Positions 19,362 through 25,744 of a stretch of DNA of 64,000 nucleotides are shown here, in pieces. A program made the position numbers and the translations under genes. Below the pieces are notes generated by a model, which had not been told where the DNA came from, made no database searches, and worked only from the letters and a program-made list of their open reading frames with translations. This DNA is from an uncultured Methanosarcinales archaeon. Lineage in GTDB: Archaea > Nanobdellota > Nanobdellia > Woesearchaeales > GW2011-AR9. Location of the stretch: positions 100,150 to 164,149 of the forward strand of contig CAZCGN010000001.1 in NCBI GenBank assembly GCA_964498285.1, given 5' to 3'. Each line of letters starts with the position of its first letter. Within the stretch, counting starts at the first letter, position 1.

Positions 19362-20048
19362 TCATTGTTCCAAAAATCTTGGTTCTCGTGCTATTTCGTC
19401 AATTAAATCACCATAACTAGCTATTTTTACTAGTGAAATATCTTCCTTAAGCAATTTTTTGTCTAAGCCATATTTCCCATTTACGTGGTTTTCGCCAACA
19501 ATTAACAAAGAGTTATTAACACGTTCTGAAAAACCAAGAATTACTTCAACCCATCTACTTTCTCTGTATAATTGAGCACCGTGAGTAGGTACTCCATATT
19601 TATCCATATGAATTTTAACTCCTCGATCTAAATAAACTACTTCGATACCCTTTCTGGTGGCATACATCCCTTGTGGTTGATTTATACCCTCAAGAAATAA
19701 TAAATCAAATTCACCTTTGTCAATTTCACCCAACTGGTGATTCCATATTCTACGACAGGCCTCTAAATCTTTTAGAATACTTTTGGTTTGATCTACTCTC
19801 CAATCTGGTCTTTTTCCATACTTCCTCTTTTCTTCATCCCTAATCCTTTGTAGTATCTCATCACCAATAGATCTCCAAAAATCTTCTTCTCTAACACAGT
19901 CTGGCCTTTCTTCAACAGCACGCACGTAAGTTCCATTTACTAGATCTGCTTGAGAGCTAGAATCTAAAAGCATCCCAAAATTCCAGTTGAGAACATTATG
20001 AAATATGTTTTGAGGATGACTATCAGCTATTGCTTTTAATGTTTTCAT
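19362..20048 (-). CDS. hypothetical protein
   Basis: 228-aa ORF. The LLIVGENHV segment is weakly reminiscent of TraB/Tiki-like GxxH motifs, but this is not secure. Confidence 0.35.
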   Translation of the reverse strand: MKTLKAIADSHPQNIFHNVLNWNFGMLLDSSSQADLVNGTYVRAVEERPDCVREEDFWRSIGDEILQRIRDEEKRKYGKRPDWRVDQTKSILKDLEACRRIWNHQLGEIDKGEFDLLFLEGINQPQGMYATRKGIEVVYLDRGVKIHMDKYGVPTHGAQLYRESRWVEVILGFSERVNNSLLIVGENHVNGKYGLDKKLLKEDISLVKIASYGDLIDEIAREPRFLEQ

Positions 20049-20288: not shown

Positions 20289-20297
20289 ACAGGATTT
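20289..20297 (+). promoter_or_regulatory. TATA-like box (TTTATATAT) upstream of the arsR-copA operon
   Basis: AT-rich box 10-30 nt upstream of the candidate arsR starts. Consistent with a leaderless or near-leaderless archaeal transcript. Confidence 0.25.
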
Positions 20298-20306
20298 ATA
20301 TATCAT

Positions 20307-20633
20307 ATGATATTTCCGTCATTTATGGAACATTCAATCGAAACATACAAGTTCTTTTTTGGAGCTTTAGCTAATCCCAATCGACTCGAGATAATCAACG
20401 TATTGCGGGCAGGCAAAAAGAACGTGGGCGAAATCTGCAATGCAACGAACTTTGAACAAACTATGGTCTCACATAACCTTAAAGTCCTAGAGCACCATGG
20501 AATGGTGTTCTCAGAAAAACAAGGCAAATTTAGGTATTACACTGTGAACTCAAAAACTATCAAACCACTTTTAGGGTTCATTGATGACCATATGAAAGAA
20601 TACTGTTGCAAAATCCTGGAGAAGAAACGATGA
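20307..20633 (+). CDS. ArsR/SmtB-family metal-responsive transcriptional regulator
   Basis: ALANPNRLEIINVLRAGKKNVGEICNATNFEQTMVSHNLKVLEHHGMV is an ArsR-type wHTH. Its stop overlaps the copA start (ATGA). Confidence 0.7.
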   Translation: MIFPSFMEHSIETYKFFFGALANPNRLEIINVLRAGKKNVGEICNATNFEQTMVSHNLKVLEHHGMVFSEKQGKFRYYTVNSKTIKPLLGFIDDHMKEYCCKILEKKR

Positions 20634-22810
20634 AAACAACATTAAATATTCAAGGAATGCATTGTGCGAGTTGTAGTACTATCATAACACGCACACTCAA
20701 AAAAGTTGAGGGTGTTAAAGAAGCTACCGTTAATTCTTCTACCGAGAAGGCCGACATTGAGTTCGATACTAAAAAAGTTGATGAAGCTACACTTATCAAC
20801 GCTATCAAAAGTAAAGGATATGGTGCCTACCCCAGTAAAGGTGTGAGCTATAAAGATCAAAAGAAGAAAAAAGAACAAGAGTTACGAAAACTCAAACAAA
20901 AAGTTATCATAAGTTCCATTCTCGCATTCCCAGCACTAATCCTTGGAATGTTTTTTATGAAGAATCCAATTCCGTTCCAAAATTACATCTTATGGATTCT
21001 TGCAACACCAATTCAATTCTACATCGGTGCAACATTCTATAAAGGAGCCTGGGGGGCGCTCAAAAATAAAACTGCAAATATGGATACCCTTATTGCCCTG
21101 GGTACGAGTGCAGCGTATTTTTATTCAGTATATATTGTGCTCTTCACGCACGAAATGCATCAATATTTTGAAACATCTGCTGTTCTGATTACATTAGTCC
21201 TCCTTGGAAAATACTTAGAAGCTGTTGCAAAAGGGAAAACAAGCCAAGCCATTTCAAAACTGATGAAGATTGGTGCAAAAACTGCAATTGTTATTCGAAA
21301 AGGTAAAGAGATCAAAGTAAAAATTGATGACGTGATTAAAGGAGATCTAATCTTAGTAAAACCTGGCGCGAAAATTCCGGTTGATGGAGTAATTGTTAAG
21401 GGCCACTCAACCATAAATGAGAGTATGGTAACTGGTGAGAGTATTCCAGTTGAGAAAAAGAAGGGAGATAATGTTATTGGCTCAACCATCAATAAACTAG
21501 GAAGCTTTACAATGAAAGCTACAAAGGTTGGCTCTGAAACCACCCTTGCACGTATCATTAAACTCATTGAAGAAGCGCAAACTAAAAAAGCGCCAATTCA
21601 AAGGTTTGCAGACACCATCTCCTCATTTTTTGTGCCAATAGTAATACTTATTGCGCTTACAACTTTAATGGTGTGGTTTTCTTTAGTGCATGCTGATTTT
21701 AGTTTTGCATTGCTTGCAGCGGTTGCTGTCCTTGTGATTGCATGCCCATGCGCTTTAGGCTTAGCTACACCAACAGCAATTATGGTAGGAACCGGTCTTG
21801 GGGCGCAACGCGGCATCCTAATTAAAGGAGGGGACGCTCTTGAAACAGCACATAAGCTTAAATTTGTTCTATTTGACAAGACTGGAACTATCACTAAAGG
21901 TGAACCTGAAGTTACCGATATTATAACAGCATCTGGTGTGAAAGAACAGAATGTGCTTTCCATTGCTGCAAGTATTGAAGCAGCTTCAGAACACCCCTTG
22001 GCTGAAGCAATTGTGAACCACGGAAAAGAAAAGAGGGCCAAGATACGAAAGGTGCGCGGATTTAAAGCAATTGCAGGGCACGGCGTTAAAGCAAAAATCG
22101 GAACAGAGCAGTATTTTATTGGAAGTCCAAAATTAATGGTCAAGCAAAAAATCTCGCTTAAAGCTATTCACAAAGAGATTGCTCGACTTGAAAATGAAGC
22201 AAAAACCGCTATGGTTGTTGCAACATCCAGAAAAGTTATGGGCATTATCGCTGTTGCTGATGAGATTAAACCAGATTCACCAAAAGCAATTGAGCAGCTT
22301 AAAAGAATGGACATTATTCCTATTATGATTACTGGGGACAATACCCGTACAGCAATCGCCATTGCAAAAAAGGTAGGATTAGAAAAATTCTTTGCAGAAG
22401 TTCTGCCTGAAGATAAAGCAGGCCACGTTAAAAAATTGCAGCGTAAAGGAAAGGTTGCAATGGTTGGAGATGGAATAAATGATGCACCAGCACTCGCGCA
22501 AGCAGACATAGGAATTGCAATGGGTTCAGGAACTGATGTTGCAATGGAGAGTGGAAACATTGTTCTTATGCAAAATAATTTGCTTGATGTACCGAAATCA
22601 ATCCATTTAAGTAGGCTTACTATGGCTAAAATCAAGCAGAACATGTTCTGGGCTCTCTTTTATAACATCTTAGGAATACCGGTTGCTGCAGGCGTGTTCT
22701 ATGTGTGGACCGGTTGGCTCTTAAACCCAATGATTGCAGGGGGGGCCATGGCCTTAAGTTCAGTAAGTGTTGTTACAAACGCGCTTCTGCTTAAAAGAAA
22801 GAGGCTCTGA
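20630..22810 (+). CDS. copA: copper-translocating P1B-type ATPase
   Basis: N-terminal HMA domain GMHCASCS, membrane CPC motif, DKTGT phosphorylation site, and GDGINDAPAL. Confidence 0.9.
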   Translation: MKTTLNIQGMHCASCSTIITRTLKKVEGVKEATVNSSTEKADIEFDTKKVDEATLINAIKSKGYGAYPSKGVSYKDQKKKKEQELRKLKQKVIISSILAFPALILGMFFMKNPIPFQNYILWILATPIQFYIGATFYKGAWGALKNKTANMDTLIALGTSAAYFYSVYIVLFTHEMHQYFETSAVLITLVLLGKYLEAVAKGKTSQAISKLMKIGAKTAIVIRKGKEIKVKIDDVIKGDLILVKPGAKIPVDGVIVKGHSTINESMVTGESIPVEKKKGDNVIGSTINKLGSFTMKATKVGSETTLARIIKLIEEAQTKKAPIQRFADTISSFFVPIVILIALTTLMVWFSLVHADFSFALLAAVAVLVIACPCALGLATPTAIMVGTGLGAQRGILIKGGDALETAHKLKFVLFDKTGTITKGEPEVTDIITASGVKEQNVLSIAASIEAASEHPLAEAIVNHGKEKRAKIRKVRGFKAIAGHGVKAKIGTEQYFIGSPKLMVKQKISLKAIHKEIARLENEAKTAMVVATSRKVMGIIAVADEIKPDSPKAIEQLKRMDIIPIMITGDNTRTAIAIAKKVGLEKFFAEVLPEDKAGHVKKLQRKGKVAMVGDGINDAPALAQADIGIAMGSGTDVAMESGNIVLMQNNLLDVPKSIHLSRLTMAKIKQNMFWALFYNILGIPVAAGVFYVWTGWLLNPMIAGGAMALSSVSVVTNALLLKRKRL

Positions 22811-22868
22811 AACTAGTTTCACGCAAGTTTATTAAGGTGTTTCATGCAAAACAAGAAACAAAACGTCG

Positions 22869-24275
22869 GTGAGGGTGACTAAAATCATGAAAATAATCAA
22901 AGTAAAAGTTCAAGGAATGACTTGTGCTAGTTGTGAAGTTCTTCTTGAACGTGGAATGAAAAAAGTAGAAGGAGTACAGAACGTTCAAGTAAGTCGCTCT
23001 AAAGAAAAAGCAACAATTCATTGTGCAGAACATATTCAATTAGAAGATCTTCAAGCAGCTGTAGCAGATAAGGGCTACAGACTTATGCCATTTGATACTA
23101 TTGAAACACCAGTACGGCCCCCTTTCATTGTAAAAAACAAAAAGCGGTATAAAGAAATTGGCTCAGCACTCGCAGTCCTGATTGGAGCATACTTCCTCTT
23201 AAAAACATTTAACTTAATTCCTGAAGGTATTGGAATTACTGACAATATGAGTTATGGGTTTGTGTTTGTCATTGGTTTAGTTGCGGCAACATCAACCTGC
23301 CTTGCTGTTGCAGGAGGTCTGCTTTTAGCCATTGCAAATAAATATAGTGAAGCTAATCCAAATCTTACTGGACGGGAAAAATTCAAACCACATATCTGGT
23401 TTAATATTGGAAGAGTTGCTTCATACACCCTTCTTGGTGCTGCAATTGGCGCGTTAGGTGCGGTTCTTACACTTTCCTCAAAGGTTTCTGGTGCGATTAC
23501 CATTGCTGCAAGTGTACTTATGATTCTTATGGGCCTACAGTTGTTACAAATCTTTCCATGGCTCAACAAAGTGCAGCTTAAAATGCCGAAGTTCATTGCG
23601 CATAGAATCTATGAAGCTTCAGACGTTGAAGAAAACTCAGCAGGCGGTTTTTCAGAAACCAGTAAAACAACATCTTTTTTGTTCGGAGCTTCTACCTTCT
23701 TTTTACCTTGTGGCTTTACCCAAGCCCTCCAACTATATGTTCTTGGAGCAGGCAGTGCCATGGTAGGAGGGCTTACAATGCTTGCATTTTCTTTAGGAAC
23801 ACTACCTGCATTAGTTGGTATTGGCGCGTTCTCGTCACTTGCAAAAGGAAAAATGAAACACAGATTTATGACATTTTCAGCAATTCTCGTTATTGTATTG
23901 GGGATTTTTAACCTTCCTGCAGGATTAACTTTAGTTGGAGCTAATGTTGTTCTTGGAGGTGGAGTTGATGTTGTAGCACCTGCAGAAATTGAATTGGTTG
24001 ATGGCACACAGATCATTGATTTGGAGGTGCGAGGCCTTGATTATTATCCCTCTTCATTTGTTCTTAAAAAAGGTGTTCCTGTTCAATGGAACATTGATGG
24101 AACTAAAGCAGTTGGGTGCGCGCAGCTGTTTAGTGTTCCAGATTTAGGGATAAACGAACGCCTTTCTCGTAGTGAAATAAAGACTCTTACATTTACCCCA
24201 CAAAAGACAGGAAAAATCTTGTTTAGTTGTTCTATGGGAATGGCAGGCCCAGGAGTTTTGGAGGTAGTCGCATGA
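22869..24275 (+). CDS. three-part fusion: HMA metal-binding domain + polytopic Cys-containing membrane domain + C-terminal cupredoxin-like domain
   Basis: N-terminal GMTCASCE (HMA). About six TM helices with conserved Cys (ATSTCLAV, FLPCGF). The C-terminal beta domain ends in KTGKILFSCSMGMAGPGVLEV, a cupredoxin_1-like Cys/Met copper-site pattern. Confidence 0.6.
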   Translation: MRVTKIMKIIKVKVQGMTCASCEVLLERGMKKVEGVQNVQVSRSKEKATIHCAEHIQLEDLQAAVADKGYRLMPFDTIETPVRPPFIVKNKKRYKEIGSALAVLIGAYFLLKTFNLIPEGIGITDNMSYGFVFVIGLVAATSTCLAVAGGLLLAIANKYSEANPNLTGREKFKPHIWFNIGRVASYTLLGAAIGALGAVLTLSSKVSGAITIAASVLMILMGLQLLQIFPWLNKVQLKMPKFIAHRIYEASDVEENSAGGFSETSKTTSFLFGASTFFLPCGFTQALQLYVLGAGSAMVGGLTMLAFSLGTLPALVGIGAFSSLAKGKMKHRFMTFSAILVIVLGIFNLPAGLTLVGANVVLGGGVDVVAPAEIELVDGTQIIDLEVRGLDYYPSSFVLKKGVPVQWNIDGTKAVGCAQLFSVPDLGINERLSRSEIKTLTFTPQKTGKILFSCSMGMAGPGVLEVVA

Positions 24276-24478
24276 AAACAGTATTGAAAGTGAGCGGGTT
24301 TCATTGTCCATCATGCAAGATGCTTATTGAAGATGTGTGCTCAGATTTTAGCCAGATCACATTATGCAACGTTGATGTAAAAGCAGGAAAAGTTGTAATT
24401 GAACATAAGGAGAGTTTAGATCTTGCAAAATTGAAAAATGAGATTGAAAGTCTTGGTGAGTACAAGGTGAAACTATGA
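24272..24478 (+). CDS. copZ: CopZ-like heavy-metal-associated copper chaperone
   Basis: MKTVLKVSGFHCPSCK is an HMA fold with a CxxC. Length 68 aa. Confidence 0.7.
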   Translation: MKTVLKVSGFHCPSCKMLIEDVCSDFSQITLCNVDVKAGKVVIEHKESLDLAKLKNEIESLGEYKVKL

Positions 24479-24624
24479 TGTACGGATACCCCATGATGGG
24501 TCCATACGGTTTTTTGTGGATGAGTCTTTTTTGGCTTATAAACATAGCACTTGCAGCATTTATCTTTGGAATCATTTTTTGGTGGACGAGAAATCTAGTC
24601 GGAAATAATAAAAAGAGGAGATGA
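24475..24624 (+). CDS. 49-aa Met/Tyr-rich single-pass membrane micro-protein
   Basis: MMYGYPMMGPYGFLWMSLFWLINIALAAFIFGIIFWWTRNLVGNNKKRR. Its ATG overlaps the copZ stop. It is not in the ORF track because it is under 60 aa. Confidence 0.4.
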   Translation: MMYGYPMMGPYGFLWMSLFWLINIALAAFIFGIIFWWTRNLVGNNKKRR

Positions 24625-24637
24625 GTTCTGCTTAACT

Positions 24638-25126
24638 ATGTTTGATCAAAAAAGAATAGGTTGGGGGCTTGCTTTGCTAGGTATTGTCTTATTGCTTCTC
24701 CTTGTTGTCATAAAAACACAAGTTGATGAACAATCTGCGTTTTTGTGTCAAGTAGTAAGTGAAGACCCAACTCTTTCCATGGATAGTTGTCCTGCGCATC
24801 AAAACAATACTTCATGGGTAATTTTGTTGGGATTTGCACTTTCATTTTTAGTGCTCGTAAGTGGCCTATTTGTTGCCCTTTCAAGCAAAAAAAATGAAGA
24901 AAAAAAGAAAGAGCAAAAAGAAATCAATTTGGATGACCTTGACTCTGAAGAAAAAAGAATAATCTTGCTACTTAAAGAAAAGCAAGGTTCAGCATATCAA
25001 AGTGAGCTCATTAAGGAAACAGAATTTTCTAAAGTAAAAATGACTCGACTTTTAGATAAGCTTGAAGGCAGAGGTCTTGTACACCGTAAAAGGCGTGGAA
25101 TGACAAATATCGTTCTTTTAAAGTGA
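24638..25126 (+). CDS. membrane-anchored winged-helix transcriptional regulator (two TM helices, Cys/His-containing loop, C-terminal MarR/PadR-like wHTH)
   Basis: TM1 GWGLALLGIVLLLLLVVI, loop FLCQVVSEDPTLSMDSCPAHQNNT, TM2, and a C-terminal wHTH (SAYQSELIKETEFSKVKMTRLLDKLEGRGLVHRKRRG). Confidence 0.5.
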   Translation: MFDQKRIGWGLALLGIVLLLLLVVIKTQVDEQSAFLCQVVSEDPTLSMDSCPAHQNNTSWVILLGFALSFLVLVSGLFVALSSKKNEEKKKEQKEINLDDLDSEEKRIILLLKEKQGSAYQSELIKETEFSKVKMTRLLDKLEGRGLVHRKRRGMTNIVLLK

Positions 25127-25744
25127 TTTTATCCCAATTATCATTTCATGATAGGTACTTAGCTCTTGTGGTGCACCTATAAATTCTAACTTTTGTGCTC
25201 TAAACCCACTATCACTAATGATAATTCCACCTGTAGCTAAATTGTTAACAATTTCTGTTTCATAAAAAGGTGATTGATCTTTCATTATACGAAAGGCTTT
25301 CTCGAAGTAGATGTCATAGTTTGTGAACTCATGCATACTTGTAAAAATGTCTTGTTCAAAGAATGTGACTTCCACAAGAATCTCTTTCCAATAAAACTTA
25401 ATGGTATTTTTTTCTCTTGAAAAAGAAATACCAACCTCGTGGAGCTGAGTTTCAATAATTTGTTGAACAGAAGATGTATCTACAAAAAGAAATGTCCAGT
25501 TTTGAGTAGATGAAAATAGCTTCTCAATATAATGCAAGGGCGTAAAAATATCTGTACCACTCCCAGGATACAGCAAAATGGCTTCTTTTTTAGTGAAAGA
25601 CACCGTAAGCGAGTTGAGTAATGCTAAACGATCAAACTCATCTGCAAAAAAATATGTGCGTAGCTTTTGAATATCTATTGTTTGATCTTTACTAAGTCCC
25701 TTTGGCTCAACTTCTTGTGAAGTGAATACGATAAAATCAGACAT
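25118..25744 (-). CDS. hypothetical protein, possibly Rossmann/methyltransferase-like
   Basis: 208 aa. ILLYPGSGTDIF resembles a SAM-MTase motif I. The support is weak. Confidence 0.35.
   Translation of the reverse strand: MSDFIVFTSQEVEPKGLSKDQTIDIQKLRTYFFADEFDRLALLNSLTVSFTKKEAILLYPGSGTDIFTPLHYIEKLFSSTQNWTFLFVDTSSVQQIIETQLHEVGISFSREKNTIKFYWKEILVEVTFFEQDIFTSMHEFTNYDIYFEKAFRIMKDQSPFYETEIVNNLATGGIIISDSGFRAQKLEFIGAPQELSTYHEMIIGIKSL

Follow-up and report, generated by a model that had tools for sequence, protein, structure and literature searches.

Positions 20295 to 25126 of a 64,000-nucleotide stretch of contig CAZCGN010000001.1 (assembly GCA_964498285.1; the whole stretch is called the window here), from an uncultured archaeon of the GTDB lineage Nanobdellota, carry a copper module of six co-directional and tightly packed genes on the + strand. 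In this module, a gene coding for a fusion of an HMA domain, a membrane domain and a cupredoxin stands between those of the copper ATPase CopA and of a small CopZ-like HMA protein, and it is followed by genes for a micro-protein and for a protein with two transmembrane (TM) helices and a winged helix-turn-helix (wHTH) domain (Table 1). All open reading frames (ORFs) were confirmed, and the starts and stops chosen were identical to the existing public gene calls at every residue; the position 20289, from which a preliminary description of this DNA made the module begin, falls in the promoter region and no gene starts there. The overlap of the ArsR stop with the CopA start, claimed in that description, was confirmed as an ATGA at position 20630, and overlaps of the same kind join the fusion stop to the CopZ-like start, which suggests translational coupling, and the CopZ-like stop to the start of the micro-protein. 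The CopA and fusion genes are separated by a gap of 76 nt that contains a GGTGA Shine-Dalgarno sequence ahead of the fusion ATG, and no second ArsR operator was found ahead of the fusion gene in the window, both of which fit the production of one transcript.

Table 1. Features of the copper module, with positions in the window
Feature	Position	Strand	Basis
Promoter and putative operator	20295..20324	+	TATA-like box and palindrome 5′ of ArsR
ArsR/SmtB metalloregulator, 102 aa	20325..20633	+	NF033788, HTH_5
CopA, 726 aa, P1B-1 ATPase	20630..22810	+	TIGR01511, TIGR01525, motifs
HMA + 7TM (DsbD_2) + CupA-like cupredoxin fusion, 462 aa	22887..24275	+	Pfam, conservation, topology, AlphaFold, CupA homology
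Small HMA protein, CopZ-like, 68 aa, GFHCPSC	24272..24478	+	Pfam HMA, context
Single-pass micro-protein, 49 aa	24475..24624	+	Hydropathy, homologues in other loci
2TM + wHTH protein, 162 aa	24638..25126	+	Pfam, topology, alignment

Domains, topology and ligands of the fusion protein

The Pfam analysis of the fusion assigned residues 6-64 to HMA, 126-340 to DsbD_2 (E 6e-38) and 373-458 to Cupredoxin_1 (E 1.7e-7), corresponding in the DNA to about 22902-23078 for HMA, 23157-23936 for the helices TM0-TM6, and 24003-24272 for the cupredoxin, which comes after a flexible linker. The DsbD_2 model (PF13386) was matched with 131.1 bits (cut-off 24.9) over 198 of its 199 positions, and it was also matched by all of the 55 distant relatives (31-52% identity) which, together with a separate set of 25 close homologues, were used to assess conservation. 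Pfam and conservation thus confirmed the parsing given in the preliminary description, namely an HMA domain, a Cys-bearing membrane domain and a cupredoxin with Cys/Met and without His, and two of its details had to be corrected. The length of 468 aa had been counted from an upstream GTG, while the ATG preceded by the Shine-Dalgarno sequence gives the 462 aa of Table 1, and the membrane domain, described as having six helices, was found to have seven, arranged as one plus six.

These seven helices, recovered by hydropathy, by two AlphaFold models and by alignment, consist of TM0 (residues 91-110) and the six-helix DsbD_2 core. The extra N-terminal helix is what places the cupredoxin outside, since six helices would leave both it and the HMA domain on the cytoplasmic side. 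The loops of the window protein carry 4, 5 and 4 Lys and Arg residues inside and 0, 1 and 0 outside, with the stretch KNKKRYK ahead of TM0, and the means over the 55 relatives were 2.5, 3.4, 5.0 and 2.2 for inside loops and 0.35, 0.38 and 0.16 for outside loops. From this distribution, the HMA domain is predicted to be cytoplasmic and the cupredoxin extracytoplasmic. The same positive-inside pattern, present in the window protein and in its relatives, agreed with the outward cupredoxin suspected earlier, and a cytoplasmic placement was not obtained. The reversed topology, with the HMA domain outside, was also considered and was rejected, as it was contradicted by the Lys and Arg distribution in the 55 sequences and no signal peptide is present.

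Six Cys residues were invariant in the close and distant sets: C13 and C16 in the HMA motif GMTCASC (both present in 55/55 relatives), C138 in TM1, C275 in TM4, and C411 and C448 in the cupredoxin. The membrane Cys residues lie in the local motifs STC (C138) and LPCGFTQ (C275), and the core also preserves R176 (100% of the 55 relatives), Q279 and Q282 (about 97%), M212 (89%) and M298 (87%). In the AlphaFold model of the core only (pLDDT, predicted local distance difference test, 79.7), both C138 and C275 stand at helix breaks, a position that is typical of substrate sites.

The external domain was characterized by both structural and sequence comparisons. Foldseek, with the full-length model against the PDB, retrieved as its top two hits the N-terminal domain of Streptococcus pneumoniae CopA (4F2F) and CupA (4F2E), with 31% identity, a target TM-score of 0.85, a root-mean-square deviation of 1.3-1.5 Å and E 4e-6, and phmmer with the cupredoxin domain alone recovered CupA (2mry/4f2e) at E 1.9e-8 and the CopA metal-binding domain (4f2f) at E 2.6e-7. 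In the alignment, C411 corresponds to Cys74 of CupA, and C448-S-M450-G-M452 to Cys111-x-Met113-x-Met115. Among the 55 relatives, C411 and C448 were conserved in 100%, M450 in 95% and M452 in 84%. These Cys/Met residues of CupA form the high-affinity bis-thiolate S1 and the Cys/Met2 S2 sites of a binuclear Cu(I) cluster (PMC5646241, PMC7558416), and the ligand roles of such a site were also drawn from PMC5552934. Therefore, because fold, homology and ligands match those of CupA, the His-less cupredoxin was assigned as a CupA-type Cu(I) domain and not as a degenerate blue-copper protein, and the idea of an unusual blue-copper derivative gave way to a CupA homologue with the same four ligands. 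A type-1 blue copper site, or a blue-copper oxidoreductase, was examined as a candidate in its own right and discarded: the His2-Cys-Met set is absent, there is no His in the domain and none conserved in the family, and the homology is to CupA.

The likeness to S. pneumoniae CupA comprises the fold, the four ligands, the tethering to the membrane and a gene encoded beside copA. CupA, however, has a single-helix anchor, lies on the cytoplasmic side and has a cupredoxin-type CopA domain as partner, whereas the fusion has seven TM helices, its cupredoxin is predicted to face outwards, and the accompanying CopA and chaperone are of the HMA type. Moreover, unlike CupA, the cupredoxin of the fusion is joined to a Cys-pair membrane core. 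Given this predicted outward orientation and an HMA domain at the CopA N-terminus, the fusion is not a CupA orthologue, despite its CupA-like domain. A review describes CupA as restricted to a few streptococci (PMC7558416), while the fusion form was found across DPANN archaea, the Candidate Phyla Radiation (CPR) and Firmicutes.

Some family members of about 570 aa (P0003, P0006, P0035, P0053, P0081, P0088, P0100 and P0114) have, at the C-terminus, a further domain of the cupredoxin-like type, which bears a Cys pair (GGCMGT...TCSMGS) and is without the second Met of the CupA motif (alignment A1, columns 560-684).

The pump, its companions and their control

CopA passed the curated models TIGR01511 (653.1 bits, cut-off 397) and TIGR01525 (665.1 bits, cut-off 346), and its translation shows FDKTGT, C372-P-C374, FYNILG (the YN motif) and MALSS (MxxSS), preceded by a single N-terminal HMA domain with the motif GMHCASC. 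The presence of DKTGT, CPC, YN and MALSS argues that it is a Cu(I)/Ag(I) pump, and with this complete P1B-1 signature its description as a standard CopA stands. The same did not apply to the supposedly standard CopZ. This protein matched Pfam HMA with 39.5 bits (cut-off 24.8) and fell under the cut-off of every CopZ equivalog model (best 31.8 bits, cut-off 91), and its motif is of the form GxHCxxC. In this motif, GFHCPSC in the window, H11, which precedes the first Cys, is 100% conserved, and both GxHCxxC and H45, in an EH pair, are conserved. Two further Cys residues, C23 and C32, are partly conserved.

The ArsR protein was identified by NCBIfam NF033788 (74.1 bits, cut-off 55) and by Pfam HTH_5 (38.7 bits, cut-off 22, E 9e-10), keeps C38, C94, C95, H50 and H89 across 33 orthologues, and is presumed to be a Cu(I)-responsive autorepressor. 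Upstream of its gene, a TATA-like box (TTTATATA, 20295-20302) is overlapped by a perfect 14-bp palindrome (ATATCATATGATAT, 20300-20313), and this element is about 25 nt away from the ArsR ATG, a distance suggesting that the operon transcript is probably leaderless. The layout, composed of AAGATTTATATATCATATGATAT, about 6 nt, ATCATAT and then the ATG, was also found 5′ of ArsR in about 30 related loci, where a second half-site is often added (ATATGATA-N4-TATCATAT). The exact core ATCATATGAT occurred once in the 64-kb window, and 21 of the 74 near-matches in 890 kb of loci were within 90 nt upstream of ArsR starts. The palindrome is a strong candidate for the ArsR operator, and its position would allow it to block transcription initiation.

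Hydropathy revealed in the 49-aa peptide four Met within the first 8 residues, one TM helix and an NNKKRR tail, so that the Met/Gly/Tyr-rich N-terminal tail is predicted outside and the basic C-terminus inside. It had no Pfam match, including no SHOCT domain, a domain found in some longer look-alikes from other loci, and a word-indexed protein search with it returned the query alone. Homologues were recovered within the related loci by tblastn and a small hidden Markov model (L029, L031, L051 and L062), and in at least 8 loci the gene immediately 5′ of the fusion codes for a Met/Gly/Tyr-rich single-pass peptide of a second subfamily. Its recurrence in copper loci argues that this is a real, recurrent accessory gene, and the Met-rich peptide claimed earlier was thereby sustained: the ORF exists and its N-terminus is rich in Met. 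It is reasonable to suppose that this tail would bind external Cu(I).

The last protein of the module matched, in residues 100-161, both PF24034 (DUF7343, 48.4 bits, cut-off 27.6) and PF01047 (MarR, 27.4 bits, cut-off 24.6). Typical MarR proteins are soluble homodimers with N- and C-terminal dimerisation helices, whereas residues 1-85 of this protein are taken up by two TM helices (4-32 and 56-85) and an outside loop (33-55) that bears C37, C51 (in CPAH) and H54. The family comprises 147 matches and belongs to DPANN archaea. In the 36 homologues aligned, a pair of Cys is always present in the loop (FLC...CP[AVM]H) and the cytoplasmic wHTH has KRRGMTN at its end, and two of the three distant members examined head copper-ATPase operons without ArsR. 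This invariant Cys pair and recurrent link to copper-ATPase operons bear out the membrane-anchored wHTH, with two helices round an outside Cys loop, that had been proposed, and they fit a membrane-tethered regulator of the copper module that would read the envelope side. ToxR and CadC are membrane-bound one-component regulators, and they share with the 162-aa protein the combination of a membrane-tethered DNA-binding domain with an extracytoplasmic sensing part that has a Cys pair. The archaeal (DPANN) family differs from them by having two TM helices, a 23-residue loop as the sole external part and a C-terminal MarR/DUF7343 wHTH.

The neighbours of the module are unrelated housekeeping genes, among them that of archaeal FttA/aCPSF1, from which it follows that the host is an archaeon and that the module is delimited. 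The base composition of the module, checked as a genomic island candidate, was unremarkable. Two flanking ORFs on the - strand, 19362-20048 (228 aa) and 25118-25744 (208 aa), had no Pfam match, and the second one shares 9 nt with the 3′ end of the wHTH gene, which is encoded on the other strand.

Distribution and gene neighbourhood of the fusion family

A word-indexed protein search recovered more than 2,485 relatives of the fusion at E<=1e-5. At E<=1e-30, 899 clusters (50% identity) matched, at least 150 of them full-length, and 380 GTDB species genomes contained a match. The members belong to DPANN archaea, with the nearest homologues in Woesearchaeota and Nanoarchaeota, to CPR/Patescibacteria (46-51% identity) and to cultured Firmicutes. 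Such identity, together with the same copA and copZ neighbours in DPANN and CPR, suggests inter-domain transfer of the three-domain protein among these ultra-small groundwater organisms. Many DPANN-like contigs carry record titles such as "uncultured Methanosarcinales", "Gammaproteobacteria" or "Saccharibacteria".

Neighbourhoods were counted over the 80 best fusion loci (L001-L080). CopA was encoded in 64 of them, a CopZ-like protein in 63 (directly downstream of the fusion in 41), ArsR in 32 and the 2TM-wHTH protein in 24, a gene arrangement that is far beyond chance. The co-occurrence of the fusion with copA, named in the preliminary description as a check, was therefore found, and what it had called non-canonical extra parts is the normal set in hundreds of DPANN and CPR genomes. 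It had also raised the possibility of a widespread family already annotated and characterised with another role, of which only the first part applies: the family is widespread, and databases give for it only the name "sulfite exporter TauE/SafE". This name is unsupported, as no TauE model of Pfam or NCBIfam matched the fusion at E<=0.1.

Among cultured organisms, Acetoanaerobium noterae (Clostridia; L086:4944-8733) carries a full-length HMA-TM-cupredoxin gene directly upstream of copA, with the TM1 motif SLHCLTMCGG and the external motif YSCWMGM; its record is labelled as a 2.6-Mb plasmid and has 4 annotated features in 2.6 Mb. HMA-less relatives formed by DsbD_2 and cupredoxin were found in plasmids of Deinococcus sp. 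QL22 (L087) and Streptomyces liliifuscus (L088), in both cases with a small HMA gene directly after them. The Streptomyces gene is located in a heavy-metal island with two bona fide CcdA, a peroxiredoxin, a BlaI/CopY regulator with an M56 peptidase and a P-type ATPase, and the Deinococcus island contains DUF4396, merB and MerR.

Other arrangements were observed. In CPR/Patescibacteria loci (L054, L057, L059, L060, L065-L068, L071, L073-L075, L077 and L078), a conserved protein of about 105 aa without a Pfam family is encoded directly upstream of the fusion (for example, L067:5586-5912). It displays an N-terminal Cys/Met/His motif, G.M..CPF....C.M...EH...W, one TM helix and a C-terminal FSQGILHPK.Y, and may be a bacterial counterpart of the DPANN accessory proteins. 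A different type of copper operon (L083:5001-9410), headed by the gene of a wHTH homologue, contains after this gene a weak DoxX match (21.3 bits, under the Pfam cut-off of 23.6), a 227-aa polytopic protein that is extremely rich in Met and Cys (CMSGMMIGMTSGM..., GLCCGIMG) and has no Pfam family, a signal-anchored Cupredoxin_1 protein with the CupA motif, an HMA protein and an HMA-less ATPase. In another locus (L085:5001-10471), the operon order is wHTH, DsbA-like, thioredoxin, CopZ, fusion and CopA. There, the membrane anchor of the DsbA-like protein is preceded by a cytoplasmic N-terminal tail rich in His (MTEHEKEHGHHAEENQKTHETHHRGTHG), and upstream of the wHTH gene an inverted repeat (TTATGAA-N9-TTCATAA) adjoins a TATA-like box.

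Metal relay, electron transfer and other readings

The two options put forward in the preliminary description for the fusion, Cu(I) handover and oxidoreductase partner of the pump, remain the two leading models. The first is tentatively favoured here. As part of it, the locus would serve a DPANN archaeon as an operon for copper (Cu(I)/Ag(I)) detoxification, in which the fusion would move Cu(I) across the membrane by thiolate ligand exchange to the external CupA-like site. An ArsR-type repressor, acting on the palindromic operator over the TATA box, would control a single transcript, and Cu(I) would pass from the CopZ-like protein to the fused HMA domain, then to the membrane Cys pair, a step that may be aided by the largely conserved Met and Gln residues, and from there to the external Cys/Met site. 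Such a relay would represent an ATP-independent export or hand-off path working beside CopA and would give a cell without periplasm a Cu(I) acceptor tethered to its outer face, and the Met-rich peptide tail might add external Cu(I) ligands. The 2TM-wHTH protein, in turn, would report envelope copper or thiol oxidation to the DNA via its outside Cys pair, complementing the cytoplasmic ArsR sensor. The gene content, the identity of the domains, the conservation of ligands and of gene context, the topology signal and the conserved operator sequence are results of the analysis, whereas we infer Cu(I) as the species transferred, outward as the direction of transfer and envelope sensing as the role of the wHTH protein.

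Several observations favour the relay of Cu(I). The domains at either end have Cu(I)-binding folds whose ligands are intact, and the membrane core between them has conserved thiophilic residues (C138, C275, M212 and M298). The constant partner of the fusion is the small HMA protein and not a thioredoxin, and even the HMA-less Deinococcus and Streptomyces relatives are accompanied by one. copA adjoins the gene in most loci and in the cultured Clostridium relative, and, for gut Firmicutes, the CsoR copper regulon was predicted to include proteins composed of HMA and DsbD_2 (COG2836; PMC4938975). The wHTH-led locus described above is also informative, as it places a non-homologous, Cys/Met-rich polytopic protein in the same slot, next to an anchored Cupredoxin_1 protein, an HMA protein and an ATPase. 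As for the regulatory part, the conserved operator, the invariant Cys pair of the wHTH protein and the existence of wHTH-led copper operons speak for copper control. The COG2836 proteins resemble the fusion in their N-terminal HMA domain, fused to a DsbD_2 core, and in their link to copper-regulated copA/copZ operons. They differ from it in that they were described with a DUF2318 membrane domain, without a cupredoxin and under CsoR, whereas the fusion is accompanied by ArsR and the wHTH protein; they are likewise uncharacterised, and the CsoR-regulon prediction (PMC4938975) was the sole relevant paper found on this type.

On the other side, a number of points weigh against a Cu(I) relay. Its weakest one is energetic, for there is no visible energy coupling for Cu(I) export, and a passive thiolate path could admit Cu(I) instead. 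Moreover, M212, M298 and M452 vary in some relatives, the full-length AlphaFold model of the fusion is mediocre (pLDDT 67.9), no structural match for the membrane core was found in the PDB, and no characterisation or experimental study of any member of the fusion family was found in the literature. The remaining points also sustain the main alternative, an electron conduit like DsbD, CcdA or ScsB, which are the nearest characterised relatives of the membrane core and are electron transporters. In this alternative, the membrane Cys pair would carry no metal, and would instead pass reducing equivalents outwards from the cytoplasm, so that the external CupA-type Cys pair, and the DsbA-like partners when present, would be kept reduced; the surface domain could then remain able to bind Cu(I), or it could reduce Cu(II) or mend disulfides induced by copper, with the HMA domain acting as donor or as a copper-dependent gate.

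The core belongs to Pfam DsbD_2, in the DsbD clan, and Pfam DsbD_TM is matched in addition by 8 of the 55 family members (best E 1e-9) and by the L085 homologue (E 1.5e-6). As in DsbD, with Cys163 and Cys285, there is one invariant Cys each in TM1 and TM4 of the core and one Cys pair per domain, that is, three Cys pairs in series, which is exactly the DsbD design (PMC3322552). Of the 80 loci, 14 contained anchored DsbA-like genes, for the most part in the same orientation and at a distance of 0.03-5 kb, and a few contained a thioredoxin gene; the L085 operon includes both. The bis-Cys (S1) site of CupA can reduce Cu(II) in vitro, with a reductant that is unknown (PMC5646241). There are also precedents: ScsB is encoded in a copper-tolerance operon (PMC3322552), and the copper protein CueP is reduced by DsbC in Salmonella and by a DsbA-like protein in Corynebacterium (PMC4546943). 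The CueP/Dsb systems and the fusion have in common an extracytoplasmic Cys-based copper protein that needs, or would need, a membrane-supplied reductant, and the recurrent DsbA-like genes add to this likeness. In the CueP/Dsb systems, however, the proteins are separate, whereas in the fusion conduit and copper domain form one polypeptide and there is no thioredoxin-fold partner in the window.

This last finding is the weakest point of the electron conduit, since no thioredoxin-fold gene was detected within the 64-kb window and no thioredoxin-fold domain in the fusion, and its cytoplasmic partners, fused and adjacent, are HMA metallochaperone domains. In addition, the external Met ligands (M450 and M452) and the core Met and Gln are conserved, though disulfide exchange would not need them, and Streptomyces keeps separate CcdA genes beside its family member. 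The window fusion itself did not match DsbD_TM (PF02683) at E<=0.1 and reached only 15.9 bits with the NCBIfam DsbD model (PRK00293, cut-off 330), and no residue-level alignment of its core to DsbD or CcdA was obtained. The likeness to DsbD, CcdA and ScsB lies in a clan-related membrane domain with weak direct matches, in an essential-looking Cys in each of TM1 and TM4 and in flanking soluble domains with Cys pairs. The flanks of the fusion, however, are copper-binding folds instead of thioredoxin or Ig-like domains, one of them is cytoplasmic, the helices number seven instead of 6 or 8, and the membrane domain is DsbD_2 and not DsbD_TM. Taken as a whole, the electron conduit is considered somewhat less likely than the Cu(I) relay.

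Two further readings are given a small probability each. In the first one, of the MerP/MerT type, the relay would run from outside to inside, with the external domain capturing Cu(I), or another thiophilic metal such as Hg or Ag, and passing it on, by way of the membrane Cys pair, first to the HMA domain and also to the CopZ-like protein, after which the metal would be buffered, sensed by ArsR or delivered to CopA. The mer relay is inward and is driven, without ATP, by reduction to Hg(0). MerP, MerT and NmerA likewise hand a thiophilic metal between Cys pairs located outside, in the membrane and in a cytoplasmic HMA domain; weak NCBIfam matches of the HMA domain to MerTP, MerP and MerA-NmerA, and the merB and MerR genes beside the Deinococcus relative, point the same way. 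The membrane proteins are not homologous, however, and the context is that of Cu(I) efflux. Copper import would be futile where the operon encodes a Cu(I) exporter and its promoter is derepressed by metal. Furthermore, no reductase or other cytoplasmic sink is encoded, and the CPC, YN and MxxSS motifs of CopA indicate Cu(I)/Ag(I) as the metal of the pathway.

The other improbable reading regards the fusion as a two-sided docking scaffold for CopA, whose HMA domain would feed or regulate the pump inside and whose external domain would accept the released Cu(I) in a CusF-like manner, the membrane domain being an anchor with a structural Cys pair. The almost constant adjacency of copA speaks for it, and delivery from CopA to a periplasmic chaperone has a precedent in the CopA-CusF interaction cited in PMC5552934. 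Nevertheless, a core of six helices whose mid-membrane Cys, both invariant, stand at helix breaks, and which also keeps an invariant Arg and near-invariant Gln residues, goes far beyond the needs of an anchor, and a single helix is enough to anchor CupA itself. Finally, a TauE/SafE-type exporter of sulfite or organosulfonates unrelated to copper, implied by the NCBI name "sulfite exporter TauE/SafE family protein" of several homologues, has a negligible probability, as Pfam TauE gave no match at E 0.1 against 131 bits for DsbD_2, and the name leaves unexplained both copper-binding end domains and the copA/copZ context.

Each component of the module has a known relative, whereas the combination of an outward CupA-type domain, a DsbD-like Cys-pair core and an HMA domain, plus a membrane-bound wHTH, has none. 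It is possible, at a confidence slightly below that placed in the Cu(I) relay, that the fusion family constitutes a new class of copper-handling membrane machine. This would be either an ATP-independent Cu(I) thiolate-relay exporter, and then the first copper transporter in the DsbD/LysE superfamily, or a self-recharging surface copper trap or reductase fed by cytoplasmic reducing power. Such a machine would be horizontally shared among ultra-small DPANN, CPR and Firmicutes, and would be governed in DPANN by a membrane-embedded wHTH that reads the envelope copper or thiol status via its external Cys pair and exerts its effect on the DNA directly.

The fate of Cu(I) after its release by CopA in cells without an outer membrane is poorly understood, as is the way in which copper sites built on cysteine stay functional when the envelope is oxidising. 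A CupA-type site predicted to lie outside and wired to a cytoplasmic chaperone domain is a concrete and testable candidate for either question, and a cultured host, A. noterae, has a full-length member beside copA. Moreover, CupA-type domains appear to be widespread and often outward-facing, in contrast to their described confinement to a few streptococci, and the name "sulfite exporter TauE/SafE" is misleading for hundreds of genes in copper operons. For the DPANN archaea in particular, a candidate membrane-bound transcription factor and a well-defined putative ArsR operator extend the very sparse knowledge of their gene regulation.

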